A stretch of DNA of 64,000 bases from Escherichia coli (GTDB lineage Bacteria > Pseudomonadota > Gammaproteobacteria > Enterobacterales > Enterobacteriaceae): NCBI RefSeq assembly GCF_024223415.1, contig NZ_CP100500.1; one strand, 5' to 3'. Shown here in pieces: positions 738 to 23,827 of the stretch (positions are counted from its first letter, which is position 1; each line of letters begins with the position of its first letter). The position numbers were made by a program, and so were the translations under genes. The notes beneath the pieces were generated by a model. It ran no database searches. It had not been told where the DNA came from and was given only the letters and a program-made list of their open reading frames with translations.

Positions 738-3050
738 ATGCCTCGCTTGTTAACCAAACGCGGCTGCTGGATAACGCTGGCAGCTGCGCCCTTTCTCCTT
801 TTTCTTGCAGCGTGGGGAGCAGATAAACTCTGGCCTCTACCGCTGCATGAAGTCAATCCCGCACGAGTGGTCGTGGCGCAGGATGGTACGCCGCTCTGGC
901 GCTTCGCCGATGCTGACGGCATCTGGCGTTATCCTGTAACAATCGAAGATGTTTCTCCACGTTACCTTGAAGCGCTGATCAATTATGAAGATCGCTGGTT
1001 CTGGAAGCATCCGGGGGTGAATCCATTCTCGGTGGCGCGCGCAGCATGGCAAGATCTCACTTCGGGACGGGTTATTTCCGGTGGCAGCACGCTCACTATG
1101 CAGGTTGCTCGTCTGCTTGATCCTCACCCCAAAACATTTGGCGGCAAAATTCGCCAGCTCTGGCGCGCGTTGCAACTGGAGTGGCATTTGTCTAAGCGTG
1201 AAATTCTGACCTTGTATCTTAACCGCGCTCCGTTTGGCGGTACGTTGCAGGGGATCGGTGCGGCAAGTTGGGCTTATCTCGGAAAGTCGCCTGCGAATTT
1301 AAGCTATTCCGAGGCGGCAATGCTGGCGGTTTTGCCGCAAGCGCCCAGCCGTCTTCGCCCGGATCGTTGGCCGGAGCGTGCCGAAGCCGCGCGTAATAAA
1401 GTGCTCGAACGGATGGCCGTGCAAGGTGTGTGGTCCCGTGAGCAGGTAAAAGAGTCAAGGGAAGAACCCATCTGGCTGGCACCCCGACAAATGCCGCAAC
1501 TTGCACCGCTGTTTTCGCGCATGATGCTCGGTAAAAGCAAAAGCGACAAAATCGTTACTACGCTGGATGCCGGTCTTCAACGACGTCTGGAAGAACTGGC
1601 GCAAAACTGGAAAGGACGTTTACCACCGCGCAGCTCACTGGCGATGATCGTGGTTGATCATACCGATATGCGTGTTCGCGGCTGGGTGGGATCGGTAGAT
1701 CTCAACGATGATTCACGCTTTGGTCATGTTGATATGGTCAATGCGATCCGATCGCCAGGGTCGGTGCTCAAACCGTTTGTTTACGGTCTGGCGCTGGATG
1801 AAGGCTTGATCCACCCGGCATCACTGCTGCAAGACGTCCCCCGGCGCACCGGTGATTATCGACCAGGTAACTTTGATAGCGGTTTTCATGGCCCGATCAG
1901 CATGAGCGAGGCGCTGGTGCGCTCGCTGAATTTACCTGCTGTGCAGGTACTGGAAGCCTATGGACCGAAACGGTTTGCGGCAAAGTTACGCAATGTTGGA
2001 TTGCCGTTATATTTGCCCAACGGTGCTGCGCCGAATCTTTCGCTCATTCTCGGCGGCGCTGGTGCAAAACTGGAAGATATGGCGGCAGCGTATACCGCGT
2101 TTGCTCGCCACGGCAAGGCAGGCAAATTGCGCTTACAGCCTGACGATCCGCTGCTTGAACGGCCTTTAATATCGTCGGGGGCTGCGTGGATCATTCGCCG
2201 GATTATGGCTGATGAAGCGCAACCCTTGCCGGATGGTGCCTTGCCGCGTGTCGCTCCACTGGCATGGAAAACGGGCACCAGCTATGGCTATCGTGACGCC
2301 TGGGCGATTGGGGTTAACGCTCGCTATGTCATTGGGATCTGGACTGGCAGACCGGACGGCACGCCCGTTGTTGGTCAGTTTGGTTTTGCCAGCGCCGTAC
2401 CATTGTTGAATCAGGTCAATAATATCTTACTGTCGCGCAGTGCTAATCTGCCGGAAGACCCGCGCCCGAACTCAGTCACTCGTGGCGTTATCTGCTGGCC
2501 GGGCGGACAGTCTTTGCCGGAAGGTGACGGTAACTGTCGCCGCCGCCTGGCAACCTGGCTGCTGGACGGGAGTCAGCCGCCAACTCTATTACTGCCGGAG
2601 CAGGAAGGCATTAATGGCATTCGTTTCCCCATCTGGCTGGATGAAAATGGCAAACGTGTTGCCGCTGATTGCCCGCAAGCGCGACAAGAAATGATAAATG
2701 TCTGGCCGCTACCGCTGGAACCCTGGTTGCCCGCATCAGAACGTCGCGCTGTGCGCTTACCACCGGCCTCGACAATTTGCCCGCCATACGGTCACGATGC
2801 CCAGCTCCCGCTGCAGCTGACAGGCGTTCGCGATGGCGAGATTATTAAACGTTTACCGGGCGCAGCGGAAGCGACTTTGCCGTTGCAATCAAGTGGAGGG
2901 GCAGGTGAACGCTGGTGGTTTCTGAATGGCGAACCGTTAACTGAACGCGGGCGCAACGTGACCCTGCATTTGACGGATAAAGGTGATTATCAATTGCTGG
3001 TGATGGATGACGTAGGGCAAATCGCGTCAGTACATTTTTCATTTCAGTGA
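738..3050 (+). CDS. pbpC: Penicillin-binding protein 1C (peptidoglycan glycosyltransferase)
   Basis: 770-aa ORF with ATG at 738 directly after the yfhM stop; length and sequence match PbpC. Confidence 0.9.
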   Translation: MPRLLTKRGCWITLAAAPFLLFLAAWGADKLWPLPLHEVNPARVVVAQDGTPLWRFADADGIWRYPVTIEDVSPRYLEALINYEDRWFWKHPGVNPFSVARAAWQDLTSGRVISGGSTLTMQVARLLDPHPKTFGGKIRQLWRALQLEWHLSKREILTLYLNRAPFGGTLQGIGAASWAYLGKSPANLSYSEAAMLAVLPQAPSRLRPDRWPERAEAARNKVLERMAVQGVWSREQVKESREEPIWLAPRQMPQLAPLFSRMMLGKSKSDKIVTTLDAGLQRRLEELAQNWKGRLPPRSSLAMIVVDHTDMRVRGWVGSVDLNDDSRFGHVDMVNAIRSPGSVLKPFVYGLALDEGLIHPASLLQDVPRRTGDYRPGNFDSGFHGPISMSEALVRSLNLPAVQVLEAYGPKRFAAKLRNVGLPLYLPNGAAPNLSLILGGAGAKLEDMAAAYTAFARHGKAGKLRLQPDDPLLERPLISSGAAWIIRRIMADEAQPLPDGALPRVAPLAWKTGTSYGYRDAWAIGVNARYVIGIWTGRPDGTPVVGQFGFASAVPLLNQVNNILLSRSANLPEDPRPNSVTRGVICWPGGQSLPEGDGNCRRRLATWLLDGSQPPTLLLPEQEGINGIRFPIWLDENGKRVAADCPQARQEMINVWPLPLEPWLPASERRAVRLPPASTICPPYGHDAQLPLQLTGVRDGEIIKRLPGAAEATLPLQSSGGAGERWWFLNGEPLTERGRNVTLHLTDKGDYQLLVMDDVGQIASVHFSFQ

Positions 3051-3144
3051 AATATACAAAATATTTATTAATCTAATTATGGTATTTATATTTGGAATGC
3101 ATTAATAATTTAATAATCTCACGTTTTTTTAAACGACTAATTAT

Positions 3145-3158
3145 TTGATTGTTATCAG
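3145..3158 (+). promoter_or_regulatory. Putative FNR binding site TTGAT-tgtt-ATCAg upstream of the DmsA-like operon
   Basis: 9 of 10 matches to the FNR consensus TTGATnnnnATCAA, centred about 62 nt upstream of the ATG at 3214 in an AT-rich intergenic region. Confidence 0.5.
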
Positions 3159-3213
3159 CATTGTTCTCGAATAAATACGTGAATATTTATTTTTTCATTT
3201 TCGGGAACGCAAG

Positions 3214-5595
3214 ATGGATACGCCAGACGAAAAGGAACGCATTACATTTCCGCAAGTATCACGACGTAGTTTTTTACAAGCGACTTCCGCGCTTATCACT
3301 TTGCCTTTTATTTCTTCTACCGCAAAGGCGCAATCCCCAGATGCGTCGCCAGAAGTTACAGCTCCAGTAGCTGATAAAGTCGTGCCCACCTGTAGCACAT
3401 TTGACTGCGGTGGTAAGTGCGATATTCGGGCGCATATGCGCGACGGCGTGGTGACGCAAATTACCACACTTCCCGATAACGAACTCGATTCACAAATGCC
3501 GATTATGCGCGCCTGTGTTCGTGGTCGCGGCTATCGTAAATTTGTTTATCATCCTGACCGTTTGAAATATCCGATGAAGCGGGTAGGTAAACGAGGGGAG
3601 GGAAGATTTGAGCGTATCTCATGGGATGAGGCGACGACCTTAATTGCCGATAAACTGAAAAGGATCACGCAACAATATGGCCCGGCTTCACGTTATGTCC
3701 ATGTCGGGACGGCTGTTTCTGGTGGAACATTTTCTGGCGATGCGATGGCGCGTCGGCTGTTAAATTTAACCGGTGGTTATCTTGAATATTATCACTCAGT
3801 TAGTCTGGGTAATACTGCGGCCGCCACGCCTTACACGTATGGCGTGGCGGCCAGCGGTAACTCGATGGATACTCTTCTGGATACCAAACTGGTGATCCTC
3901 TGGGGGCATAACCCAACGGAAACCATATTCGGTCACACCAATTACTATTTTCAAAAAATGAAGCAAAACGGTACACGTTTTATCGTGGTGGATCCGCGCT
4001 ATTCCGACACCGTATCTTCACTTGCCGATCAGTGGATCCCGCTGTTGCCGACCACGGACAATGCGTTGATGGACGCGATGATGTACGTCATTATCAGCGA
4101 GAATCTCCACGATAAGACATTTATCGACACATATATTCTCGGTTTTGATGAAAACTCTATGCCAGAAGGCGTACCAGCCAACGAATCGTTGGTTGCCTAC
4201 CTTTTTGGCGCAAAAGATGGGATACACAAAACGCCGGAATGGGCAGAAAAAATTACCCACGTTCCAGCACAATCCATTCGTCAACTGGCACGCGATTACG
4301 CCACTACAAAACCCGCAGCGTTGATTCAGGGATGGGGGCCACAGCGACATATTTGCGGCGAACGCACCGCCCGAGGTTCAACTTTACTGGCCTCGATTAC
4401 CGGTAACGTCGGCATCAAAGGTGGCTGGGCGGCAGGTTACGGCGGTAGTTCTAATCGTAAATTCTGCGTTGGACCAGATATGCCAGAAAATCCGGTACAA
4501 GCGAAAATCTCGATTATGAACTGGATGCAGGCGGCGGATGATGCTTCTAAAGTTACGCCGCAAGATGGGCTTAAAGGTGTCGATAAACTCGACAGTAATA
4601 TCCGCCTGCTGTTCTCACTGGCAGGTAATTATCTGGCGAACCAGAACCCGGACGTCCACCAGGCCGCGAAGCTCCTTGAAGACGAATCTAAAATAGAATT
4701 CATCGTACTCAGCGATCTGTTCATGACTCCGAGCGCGAAATATGCCGATGTGTTGCTGCCGGAAACCAGCTTTATGGAACGCTGGAATATCGGCGAAACA
4801 TGGGGAACTGCGAGCTATCTTATTCTGTCAGAAAAACTGATTGAGCCGGATTTTGAACGTCGCACCGATTATGACTGGTTGCGTGACGTGGCGAAAAAAC
4901 TGGGTGTCGAAGCCGAGTTCAGTCAAGGACGTGATGAGAAGCAATGGATCGAGCATATCTGGGAGCAAACTCGTCTGGCGATGCCGGATGAAAATTTGCC
5001 GGACTTCGCGACCCTGCAAAAAACACGTCGACATCTTTTCAAAAGCGCGCCGCACATCGCTTTCGAAGCAAATATTCGCGATCCGCAGAATAATCCTTTC
5101 CCGACGCCTTCCGGCAAAATTGAGATCTTCTCTAAGCGTCTTTTTGATATGCAAGATCCAGAAATTCCCGCGCTTTCGCACTATGTCCCTGCCTTTGAAG
5201 GGCCAGAAGATAAACTGACGGCGAAATACCCGCTGCAGCTCATCACCTGGAAAGGGAAAAACCGTGCTAATTCCACCCAGTATGCTAACCCGTGGCTGCA
5301 AGAAGTTCAGACGCAAAAACTCTGGCTGAATCCGCAAGATGCAAAACAGCGCGGGATTAGCGAAGGAGATAGCGTAAAAATTTATAACGATCGTGGTGTG
5401 AGCATTATCCCGGTGGAAATAACCCCCCGTATCATCCCTGGCGTAGTTGCTATGCAGGCGGGGGCATGGTGGCAACCGGATGCACAAGGTATCGATCGCG
5501 GAGGCTGTGCCAATGTACTGAGTTCGACCCGCATTACGGCGCTGGCGAAAGGGAATTCGCATCAAACAATGCTGGTGGAGGTTGAGAAAGCATGA
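3214..5595 (+). CDS. Tat-exported molybdopterin oxidoreductase catalytic subunit, DMSO reductase family (DmsA/YnfE-like), substrate unknown
   Basis: 793-aa ORF with twin-arginine motif SRRSFLQ near the N-terminus, then a CxxxxCxxxC...C cysteine cluster typical of DmsA-type FeS sites; stop overlaps the next start (ATGA at 5592-5595). Confidence 0.85.
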   Translation: MDTPDEKERITFPQVSRRSFLQATSALITLPFISSTAKAQSPDASPEVTAPVADKVVPTCSTFDCGGKCDIRAHMRDGVVTQITTLPDNELDSQMPIMRACVRGRGYRKFVYHPDRLKYPMKRVGKRGEGRFERISWDEATTLIADKLKRITQQYGPASRYVHVGTAVSGGTFSGDAMARRLLNLTGGYLEYYHSVSLGNTAAATPYTYGVAASGNSMDTLLDTKLVILWGHNPTETIFGHTNYYFQKMKQNGTRFIVVDPRYSDTVSSLADQWIPLLPTTDNALMDAMMYVIISENLHDKTFIDTYILGFDENSMPEGVPANESLVAYLFGAKDGIHKTPEWAEKITHVPAQSIRQLARDYATTKPAALIQGWGPQRHICGERTARGSTLLASITGNVGIKGGWAAGYGGSSNRKFCVGPDMPENPVQAKISIMNWMQAADDASKVTPQDGLKGVDKLDSNIRLLFSLAGNYLANQNPDVHQAAKLLEDESKIEFIVLSDLFMTPSAKYADVLLPETSFMERWNIGETWGTASYLILSEKLIEPDFERRTDYDWLRDVAKKLGVEAEFSQGRDEKQWIEHIWEQTRLAMPDENLPDFATLQKTRRHLFKSAPHIAFEANIRDPQNNPFPTPSGKIEIFSKRLFDMQDPEIPALSHYVPAFEGPEDKLTAKYPLQLITWKGKNRANSTQYANPWLQEVQTQKLWLNPQDAKQRGISEGDSVKIYNDRGVSIIPVEITPRIIPGVVAMQAGAWWQPDAQGIDRGGCANVLSSTRITALAKGNSHQTMLVEVEKA

Positions 5596-6221
5596 GCCAA
5601 TTTAAAGAATTTGCATCTGTCAGCGACAAACAATTAGGGTTCTTTATTGACTCTTCGCGTTGTTCGGGCTGTAAAGCGTGTCAGGTGGCCTGTAAAGACA
5701 AAAACAACCTTGAGGTTGGGCGACGTTTTCGCCGCGTGTATGAAGTGAACGGCGGTGGCTTCATCGCCACTGGAGAGGGCGGTGTGAGTCATAATGTCTT
5801 TGCTTATACCCTTTCTGTTTCCTGTAACCATTGCGCGGATCCGATCTGTACCAAAAATTGCCCGACGATAGCGATGCATAAGCGTCCCGGAGACGGCATT
5901 GTGCGCGTGAATACTGATAAGTGCGTCGGTTGCGGTTACTGCGCCTGGTCCTGTCCTTACGGCGCACCACAAATGAATGAGCAGACCGGGCAGATGTCGA
6001 AATGCGATTTCTGTATTGATCTGCAAGCTAAAGGAGAACAACCCATTTGCGTGGCAACGTGCCCGTTGGGGGCGATTAAGTTCGGCCCTATTGATGAGTT
6101 GCGTGAAAAGTATGGCGATGTCAGTGATGTGAAAGGTTTACCTGATTCGTCGATTACGCAGCCAAATCTGGTGATTAAACCGCATCAGGGCGCGGAAAAG
6201 GAGGCGTCACATCATGCATGA
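5592..6221 (+). CDS. Four-cluster 4Fe-4S ferredoxin electron-transfer subunit (DmsB-like)
   Basis: 209-aa ORF with several CxxCxxCxxxCP motifs; translationally coupled to both neighbours. Confidence 0.85.
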   Translation: MSQFKEFASVSDKQLGFFIDSSRCSGCKACQVACKDKNNLEVGRRFRRVYEVNGGGFIATGEGGVSHNVFAYTLSVSCNHCADPICTKNCPTIAMHKRPGDGIVRVNTDKCVGCGYCAWSCPYGAPQMNEQTGQMSKCDFCIDLQAKGEQPICVATCPLGAIKFGPIDELREKYGDVSDVKGLPDSSITQPNLVIKPHQGAEKEASHHA

Positions 6222-7035
6222 ATTACCGTTAATGGCTTTTACGCTGTTGTTACAGGCATCGGTCGGTATGACGTTGTGGCTGGCGTTTCTTCATCGTCAT
6301 ATTTTAATCACCTCCAGCGCCCGCCCGGTTATGCGGCCGCCATTACTGTTGGCTTTTTTGGCAGGTGCCGTAGGGTTACTAATTTCTACCTTACATCTGG
6401 GTTATCCACTTAATGCGATGCATGCGCTAAGCCACTTTTCCAGTTCATGGCTGAGTCGGGAAATTATCTTTGGTGCGCTGTATCTGGCGCTATTGGGTTT
6501 ATCCACATTACTGGTCATGTTACGCAAAGGCGGCTGGCAACTCCTGCTTATGCTAGCGGCAGTGGTCGGGATTGTTGATGTTTTCTGCATGGCGCAAGTT
6601 TACATCCATACGTCGATTATCACCTGGCAGCATTACAACACACTGATTATGTTCTTAGGTACAGTGGGAATTCTCGGTTCAGCGCTGGTAGCAGTGTTTC
6701 GTATTAGCGGAATTTTGCCGCAGATTGATGCCCTGCGTAATGGATGCGTGTTGGTGATCGCTCTCCTGGTTCTGTTGCGTTTGTTGGTTCAGCCGTTGTG
6801 GATAGGGGATTTAACGGCAAATGCGATGCAGATAGCCACATTGCCACATGCGCCATTAGCGATGCTGGGACAGTTAAAACCCATACTGACACTAAGCTGG
6901 GGAATTTCCGTCATTGGGATGATGTTCTTTGCTGTCGGTGGTTGTAAAAAGAATATCCCGGCGGCGTTATTCGGTAGCGTAATGCTAGTGGGGAGTGAAG
7001 TTATGCTGCGTTTTGTCTTTTTTAGTATCGGCTAA
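6214..7035 (+). CDS. Polytopic membrane anchor subunit (DmsC-like)
   Basis: 273-aa highly hydrophobic ORF, overlaps the upstream gene by 8 nt and the downstream gene by 1 nt (TAATG); position matches the DmsC role. Confidence 0.7.
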   Translation: MHELPLMAFTLLLQASVGMTLWLAFLHRHILITSSARPVMRPPLLLAFLAGAVGLLISTLHLGYPLNAMHALSHFSSSWLSREIIFGALYLALLGLSTLLVMLRKGGWQLLLMLAAVVGIVDVFCMAQVYIHTSIITWQHYNTLIMFLGTVGILGSALVAVFRISGILPQIDALRNGCVLVIALLVLLRLLVQPLWIGDLTANAMQIATLPHAPLAMLGQLKPILTLSWGISVIGMMFFAVGGCKKNIPAALFGSVMLVGSEVMLRFVFFSIG

Positions 7036-7889
7036 TGTTAAGTCATAACATAACGATTGGCGCGGAATGCGCGCGCCAACGCTTTCGTTTTGCAACATGT
7101 CATGCCTGTGTCGAGGCTTGCCCGGCACAGGCGCTAACGCTGACAGAAGAGGGCATAGCGGTCGACGCGGAACAATGTATTGAGTGTGCGGTTTGCCAGT
7201 TTATTTGTCCGCAAGAGGCTATTCGTGGCGTTAATTCCCCTTTACGTTATTTTCGCAATCACACCCTGGTCGCACCTTTCACCACTATTGCGCCGACGCT
7301 GGAAGAACTTTTGCTATGGCATAAAGAGCAGGGGATCACAGCGATCGCGATTGATCTGAGTCAGGCGAAGGCATGGGAGCGCGCATTATTGCTGTTAAAC
7401 GAACGCTTACGGCAATATGGCGAGGAAGGCTGGTCTGTGGTATCTCCACATACCAGTGAGGTGAATGTTTCCCGGCGTCGTTTGTTCCATGTGCAGCGTG
7501 CGGATGTTCAGATGATACAAATACAACCAGGATTACGTCGGTTACATTATTTTTGGCCCCAGATTAGTGATGCTCGCCCGATGATGGATCCTCAAAAGTG
7601 TCAGCTTTGCGGTGCATGCTGGCGGGCCTGCGAGCAACAGGTCTTTTCGCTTAACGAAGGCCATTTACAAATCAATGATGCCTTGTGTAACGGATGCCAA
7701 AATTGTATTGCTGTTTGTTTTCATCAGGCAATGACCGTTGAATTGACAATTCTACCTGCAAAAATTGTGAATCTTCATGCTAATCGCAAAGTCTGTAAAA
7801 CCTGTCAAAAATCCTTTCTTACTTTTCAGCAAAATGCGCAAAATTGTCTTTATTGCCAACGTCATCGCTATGGGATGAGAGCACCATAA
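7035..7889 (+). CDS. Cytoplasmic ferredoxin-like protein with four Cys clusters and a C-terminal CxxC...CxxC pair
   Basis: 284-aa ORF without signal peptide; motifs CHACVEACP, CIECAVCQFICP, CQLCGACWRAC, CNGCQNCIAVC and a terminal CKTC...CLYC; coupled to the anchor gene. Confidence 0.7.
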   Translation: MLSHNITIGAECARQRFRFATCHACVEACPAQALTLTEEGIAVDAEQCIECAVCQFICPQEAIRGVNSPLRYFRNHTLVAPFTTIAPTLEELLLWHKEQGITAIAIDLSQAKAWERALLLLNERLRQYGEEGWSVVSPHTSEVNVSRRRLFHVQRADVQMIQIQPGLRRLHYFWPQISDARPMMDPQKCQLCGACWRACEQQVFSLNEGHLQINDALCNGCQNCIAVCFHQAMTVELTILPAKIVNLHANRKVCKTCQKSFLTFQQNAQNCLYCQRHRYGMRAP

Positions 7890-8029
7890 AAGTCGAGTTG
7901 TTGCTAAAACTCATTTTATTTTAAAAAAATGTTACCTTCATCAATAGTCAACGGCCCTGTTGCTCATTATAATCCGCGCCATCTCGTACGCTGGTACAGA
8001 CAACAACAGAACAATTTACAGAGGTAAAA

Positions 8030-17078: not shown

Positions 17079-18691
<1,613 letters not shown>

Positions 18692-23813: not shown

Positions 23814-23827
23814 TTGATATATATCAA
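23814..23827 (+). promoter_or_regulatory. FNR consensus site TTGAT-atat-ATCAA upstream of pdeF
   Basis: 10 of 10 match to TTGATnnnnATCAA, about 135 nt upstream of the pdeF ATG. Confidence 0.55.

Follow-up and report, generated by a model that had tools for sequence, protein, structure and literature searches.

In an accessory region of an Escherichia coli chromosome, an inverted repeat at window positions 3145 to 3158 is likely to be the FNR site of an activator-dependent sigma-70 promoter of class II, which would drive the four-gene DmsABC-like operon lying at 3214 to 7889. The term 'window' refers throughout to the 64,000-nucleotide stretch of contig NZ_CP100500.1 (NCBI RefSeq assembly GCF_024223415.1) that was analysed, and all positions are counted from its first base. 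We infer the transcription start, the binding of FNR in E. coli and the activation itself from the sequence and its comparison with relatives. The FNR box is probably real but ordinary, and the mechanism would be a textbook one. Under anoxia, the inverted repeat would be the target of [4Fe-4S]-FNR dimers; its centre would lie at about -41.5 from a start near 3193, and the repeat would overlap the place of the missing -35 element. Bound FNR would recruit RNA polymerase to a weak -10 hexamer (GAATAT), and the resulting mRNA would have a leader of about 21 nt and encode the whole operon. The features concerned are collected in Table 1.

Table 1. Positions in the window of the FNR box, the predicted promoter elements, the operon and the surrounding segment
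Feature	Position	Strand	Basis
FNR box, inverted repeat TTGATTGTTATCAG	3145..3158	.	Sequence read, rebuilt-matrix score, ortholog position, E. coli invariance
AT-rich spacer 5' of box	3051..3144	.	21-29% G+C; unconserved between genera
-10 hexamer GAATAT, predicted	3181..3186	+	22 nt past box; -11A and -7T kept; box-anchored ortholog profile
Transcription start zone, putative	3192..3197 (best guess 3193)	+	Inferred from -10 hexamer position
Ribosome-binding site GGGAA	3203..3207	+	About 7 nt 5' of ATG; aligns with AAGGAA in orthologs
DmsA-like catalytic subunit, twin-arginine signal, DMSO/selenate reductase family A	3214..5595	+	TIGR02166, PGAP; ortholog of Salmonella STM2530
DmsB-like 4Fe-4S subunit	5592..6221	+	TIGR02951, 265.6 bits versus cut-off 214.1
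DmsC-like membrane anchor	6214..7035	+	PGAP 'dimethyl sulfoxide reductase anchor subunit family protein'
4Fe-4S dicluster protein, fourth gene	7035..7889	+	Specific to this operon type; fast-evolving
Segment missing from K-12 between pbpC and ndk, about 4.9 kb	3032..7897	+	Alignment with K-12; holds promoter and four genes

The box is composed of TTGAT (3145-3149), a spacer, tgtt (3150-3153), and ATCAG (3154-3158). It matches the consensus TTGAT-N4-ATCAA at nine of the ten defined positions, the sole mismatch being the outermost base. G3147 and C3156 of the two half-sites are both kept, as is expected of an inverted repeat recognised by FNR. The centre of the box (3151.5) lies 62.5 nt 5' of the A of the ATG at 3214, which is the same start codon as that given in the PGAP annotation of identical E. 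coli genomes. The spacer between pbpC and the operon (3051-3213) is 163 nt long and contains 22% G+C. A previous reading, made from the letters of the window without database searches (the sequence-only reading), had described TTGAT-tgtt-ATCAg in an AT-rich leader, centred about 62 nt before the ATG, and was accurate in each of these particulars.

For a calibrated score, the FNR PatSer matrix of Myers 2013 (PMC3688515) was rebuilt by regression on the 146 site/score pairs in Table S6 of that study (maximum residual 0.006). The rebuilt matrix reproduces the published p-values, and the published precision-recall cut-off is a score of 12.18 (ln p -10.75). The box scores 10.38 (ln p about -9.5) and thus falls under this stringent threshold. 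It ranks 19th in the window, where 18 other positions score as high or higher; the total of 19 positions at or above 10.38 compares with 5-10 expected by chance. The earlier description 'near-consensus' is overstated in view of this calibrated score, which is also the lowest among the boxes of syntenic relatives. Two other measures were set aside. A first weight matrix, derived from 63 ChIP-positive above-threshold sites, gave the site 8.86; it over-penalised the G at position 14 and was replaced by the rebuilt PatSer matrix. A simple count of consensus sites with at most one mismatch (four in the window versus 2.45 expected) is uninformative as a test of the site.

A calibrated matrix scan was the check that the sequence-only reading had itself proposed. 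As positive controls, it recovers the ChIP-bound pdeF(yfgF)/yfgG (16.08) and guaB/xseA (12.94) sites, both inside the window, but it leaves the site itself sub-threshold. The first of these known Myers 2013 sites is a perfect FNR box, TTGATATATATCAA, at 23814-23827 and the second is the box GTGAGCGAGATCAA at 18662-18675. A further sub-threshold FNR-like sequence, TTGATCTGAGTCAG (7351-7364; score 11.93), is located in coding sequence within the fourth gene of the operon and outscores the promoter site.

Binding does not require a score above the matrix threshold, nor does such a score guarantee it, given that many genuine ChIP peaks fall under the cut-off. For example, real peaks with weak matrix matches include dmsA (ln p -10.34), nikA (-9.55) and frdA (-5.15; Myers 2013, PMC3688515). 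At dcuC/pagP, FNR binds in vivo to a site with the mirror-image mismatch, CTGATTAAAATCAA (CTGAT...; PMC3688515, Table S6). The same study lists many predicted sites that lack an FNR peak and coincide with regions occupied by H-NS, IHF or Fis (PMC3688515), and masking of this type could apply to the AT-rich spacer of the operon.

The main support comes from comparison with orthologous promoters. We assembled 80 loci encoding relatives of the A subunit (67-99% identity) from species-representative genomes and used 22,091 windows from the same 80 loci as a control. The box zone covered the 35 nt that place the centre of a box 45.5-80.5 nt 5' of the start codon. Of the 80 loci, 43 have a box in this zone with a score of 12.18 or more, versus 0.24% of the control windows; at a score of at least 10.38, the figures are 52 of 80 and 0.80%. 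The genera represented include Salmonella, Enterobacter, Citrobacter, Leclercia, Lelliottia, Siccibacter, Franconibacter, Photorhabdus, Proteus, Morganella, Budvicia and Limnobaculum, among others. Some of the loci carrying a box share the pbpC-ndk context and many are found at other genomic places. Perfect boxes are present in Salmonella (TTGATAAATATCAA), Enterobacter (TTGATAATTATCAA), Budvicia (TTGATTGTTATCAA) and Proteus (TTGATATACATCAA).

Aligning the promoters on the box gives a profile whose information content is about 0-0.3 bit except in the box and in an xAxAAT island located 23-28 nt past it, which corresponds to -12 to -7. Apart from the box and this -10-like hexamer, nothing in the orthologous promoters is conserved: the box recurs between unconserved flanks, as a phylogenetic footprint. 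An xAxxxT hexamer starting 21-22 nt past the box is found in 52 of 58 distinct promoters, control pairs of offsets giving 6.1 on average, and in the same promoters the distance from box to ATG ranges from 55.5 to 76.5 nt. The fixed spacing to the hexamer together with the variable distance to the ATG therefore ties the box to the -10 element rather than to the start codon. A spacing of 21-22 nt would put the centre of the box at -40.5 or -41.5, which is class II geometry. The comparison, together with the literature on the Salmonella ortholog, supports two predictions of the sequence-only reading, an FNR site and a class II arrangement with a short 5' untranslated region (UTR), the latter being predicted here at about 21 nt for the operon. 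Across Enterobacterales, these promoter sequences show a putative FNR class II layout that is ancient and an integral part of the operon.

The same comparison bears on whether the E. coli match is simply a chance product of the AT-rich spacer with no regulatory role. Within the window such an origin is conceivable, given the number of equally good positions described above, a consensus count that is not above expectation and the 4.6% of dinucleotide shuffles of the spacer that equal or beat 10.38. It is nevertheless extremely improbable, since dozens of orthologous promoters from other genera, with unrelated flanks, have this motif at the same distance from a -10-like hexamer, and the E. coli box matches theirs in both position and spacing. 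As judged from the sequences, the site barely exceeds chance within one genome and clearly does so across species.

Other elements around the E. coli box are consistent with an activator-dependent promoter. The predicted -10 hexamer matches TATAAT at only three of six positions, and a simple scan of positions 2900-3400 detected no self-sufficient sigma-70 promoter (at least 9 of 12 positions), as would suit a promoter whose -35 element is weak or missing. The -35 region holds the FNR box in place of a hexamer, and the lack of a stand-alone sigma-70 promoter is expected where an activator replaces the -35 contact. No Rfam match (riboswitch or leader RNA) was obtained in positions 2800-3600 at E <= 1. 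The promoter contains no NarL heptamer (TACYYMT) and therefore gives no sign of nitrate control. The spacer 5' of the box could contain an alpha-CTD contact region or bind H-NS. In sequence, conservation and architecture, the predicted promoter has the properties of an FNR class II promoter, although it fails the stringent matrix cut-off.

A different reader of the site (CRP or YeiL, both of the CRP/FNR family), or FNR acting as a repressor or with a geometry other than class II, is very improbable. CRP and FNR sites do resemble each other in their core, and the E. coli site is not a perfect match. However, the half-sites are TTGA and, on the other strand, CTGA, not the GTGA preferred by CRP, and CRP was rejected as the reader for this reason. 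Moreover, the orthologs converge on a perfect TTGAT-N4-ATCAA, and the fixed spacing of 21-22 nt between box and hexamer is that of an activating class II promoter. Repression is also at odds with the Salmonella ortholog, which is reported (PMC12636705) as activated and not repressed by FNR.

The operon that FNR would control is of the DmsABC type: the A subunit exceeds its family cut-off (TIGR02166, 1124.9 bits versus 777.7) and is followed, in A-B-C order, by a ferredoxin-like B subunit and a membrane anchor, the latter having no NCBIfam match. The equivalog models for DmsA, YnfE and YnfF score the A subunit at 706, 670 and 694 bits, respectively, all under their cut-offs of 1600-1675, and the substrate therefore cannot be assigned from them. 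None of the four ORFs is interrupted, and the annotation gives each as a full-length gene. Their start and stop codons overlap, which implies a single transcript. The gene order is pbpC (738-3050), the four-gene operon, then ndk and rlmN.

In K-12, pbpC directly precedes ndk, and the segment from about 3032 to about 7897, including the whole promoter, is absent. K-12, which served for the published FNR ChIP-seq, is without the operon. Among complete E. coli genomes, 379-380 of 5426 (about 7%) carry it, including those of the O157:H7 and O55:H7 lineage; the operon can for this reason be called accessory, the term already used in the sequence-only reading. The left junction of the segment (3027-3050) falls inside the last few codons of pbpC and the right junction is at about 7897, so the C-terminal tail of PbpC in genomes carrying the operon differs from that in K-12.

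Identity between the E. coli and Salmonella proteins is about 84% for A, 87% for B, about 51% for C (the anchor) and 38% for D (the product of the fourth gene), the last two diverging much faster than A and B. A mosaic origin of the operon was considered (positions 6214-7889 compared with seven ortholog loci) and rejected, as the same difference in rate is seen in every pair of species. No relevant literature on the operon was found by searching with Z/ECs locus tags or for the pbpC-ndk-DMSO reductase context.

The promoter belongs to a well-known kind: it is akin to the FNR promoters of narG, dmsA and ynfE and orthologous to that of STM2530. The FNR site of narG is at -41.5, in a class II FNR-activated promoter. 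The narG/ydhY site, TTGATCGTTATCAA, shares 12 of 14 bases with the site in the window, including three of the four spacer bases (TGTT versus CGTT), and, like it, is located 5' of a molybdoenzyme or respiratory operon. The window site has T rather than C at position 6 and G rather than A at position 14; these two changes account for its score of 10.38 versus 14.78 for the narG/ydhY site. Unlike narG, the window promoter is without a NarL heptamer. Both the narG and the ydhY sites of K-12 are ChIP-bound (PMC3688515, Table S6).

The dmsABC and ynfEFGH operons are paralogous DMSO/selenate reductase operons with the same A-B-anchor order as the operon in the window. The P1 promoter of dmsA is of class II, with FNR at -41.5. 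Both dmsA and ynfE promoters have FNR ChIP peaks and imperfect boxes: that of ynfE, TTGATATGGATTAA, scores 13.01, and the best match at dmsA, with the ln p given above, is sub-threshold. Unlike these two operons, the operon in the window is accessory, includes a fourth 4Fe-4S gene and has an A subunit below the equivalog cut-offs. Its promoter is unrelated in sequence to theirs outside the box.

The true ortholog is Salmonella enterica STM2530-STM2527 (STM14_3103-3100; 'psr1' in a 2025 preprint), which occupies the same pbpC-operon-ndk context and whose A subunit is 83-84% identical to that in the window (two Salmonella loci compared). Its promoter has the same layout, with the centre of the box 60.5 nt before the ATG and a -10 hexamer 22 nt past the box. 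The Salmonella box is perfect (TTGATAAATATCAA; 14.9) and is accompanied by the hexamer GAGAAT, in contrast to the nine-of-ten box (10.38) and GAATAT of E. coli. The 2025 preprint (PMC12636705), which cites Fink 2007, counts STM2530/STM14_3103 with the most strongly FNR-activated loci. The supplement on the Salmonella ArcA regulon contains no entries for STM2527-2530.

The function of this ortholog is under debate. One study reported no DMSO phenotype (bioRxiv 10.1101/2022.11.29.517730), whereas a preprint that has not been peer-reviewed claims periplasmic sulfate reduction (PMC12636705). The present analysis provides a concrete predicted control region (the box, the -10 hexamer and a start near 3193) for an uncharacterised operon of respiratory type, which is accessory and occurs in E. 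coli O157:H7, O55:H7 and certain other lineages. The ancient FNR layout also suggests where its function should be sought, namely under anoxia with active FNR.

The Escherichia copy differs from the others in its weakness. Among the loci in the pbpC-ndk context, the E. coli box has the lowest score (10.38 versus 12.2-14.9), and that of a cryptic, sister Escherichia clade, TTGATTGTTGTCAG, is weaker still (9.14). E. coli has ATCAG where its relatives have ATCAA, and GAATAT as the -10 hexamer where they have GAGAAT or GAAAAT. With both elements weakened, E. coli probably expresses the operon at a lower level, or under stricter anaerobiosis, than these relatives do. The stretch from box to ATG is invariant among the E. 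coli variants sampled, and all polymorphisms lie 5' of the box. These, recorded around 3134-3140, comprise a T-run of variable length, a few SNPs and, in strain 100181, a deletion of 9 bp.

This weakness raises the question of whether the box is a decayed relic of an ancestral FNR site, the operon being silent or transcribed only by read-through from yfhM-pbpC. The low scores in both Escherichia groups and the divergent -10 hexamer would agree with such decay. So would the absence of the operon from about 93% of complete E. coli genomes, which fits weak selection, and, for read-through, our failure to find a terminator-like site between pbpC and the operon. We nevertheless regard a relic as unlikely. 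The four genes have intact reading frames and are all annotated as full-length; the key G and C of both half-sites, together with -11A and -7T of the hexamer, are retained; and variation in the sampled E. coli genomes gathers just upstream of a region, from box to ATG, that does not vary. In addition, the sites bound by FNR in K-12 include weaker matrix matches, as the ln p values for dmsA, nikA and frdA illustrate.

The weakest box in the group and the poorer -10 hexamer, in an operon that most E. coli genomes have lost, do leave room for attenuation or decay in this lineage. We offer, more tentatively, a further possibility, in which the Escherichia copy would be an FNR promoter that has been attenuated, either deliberately or progressively. 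With a box and a -10 hexamer both weaker than those of every syntenic relative, and a spacer of 78% A+T, it might fire only at maximal FNR activity or once silencing of the H-NS type has been lifted; alternatively, it might represent decay just before the gene loss observed in about 93% of E. coli genomes. The reading that we prefer is still that of an FNR-dependent class II promoter serving the operon.

Several observations made during the comparison concern the orthologous loci themselves. Fourteen loci from Proteus, Providencia and Morganella lack a box; they constitute a distinct group of paralogs, with A subunits 67-69% identical to that in the window. No FNR-like box was found within 300 nt of the start codon in these paralogs and the fourth gene is also missing; the regulation of this paralog operon therefore evidently differs. 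A contig labelled 'Chryseobacterium sp. 18061' is the same as a Citrobacter sp. 18056 contig in its promoter, gene coordinates and protein identities, and is probably from a mislabelled or contaminated assembly. Finally, in seven loci from Enterobacter and Salmonella arizonae, an in-frame ATG occurs about 27 nt upstream of the start codon, where it overlaps the -10 hexamer (GAGAATG...). It would add the residues MRFYLKERA to the protein and sits 5' of the predicted transcription start, and is thus a likely trap for start-codon annotation.
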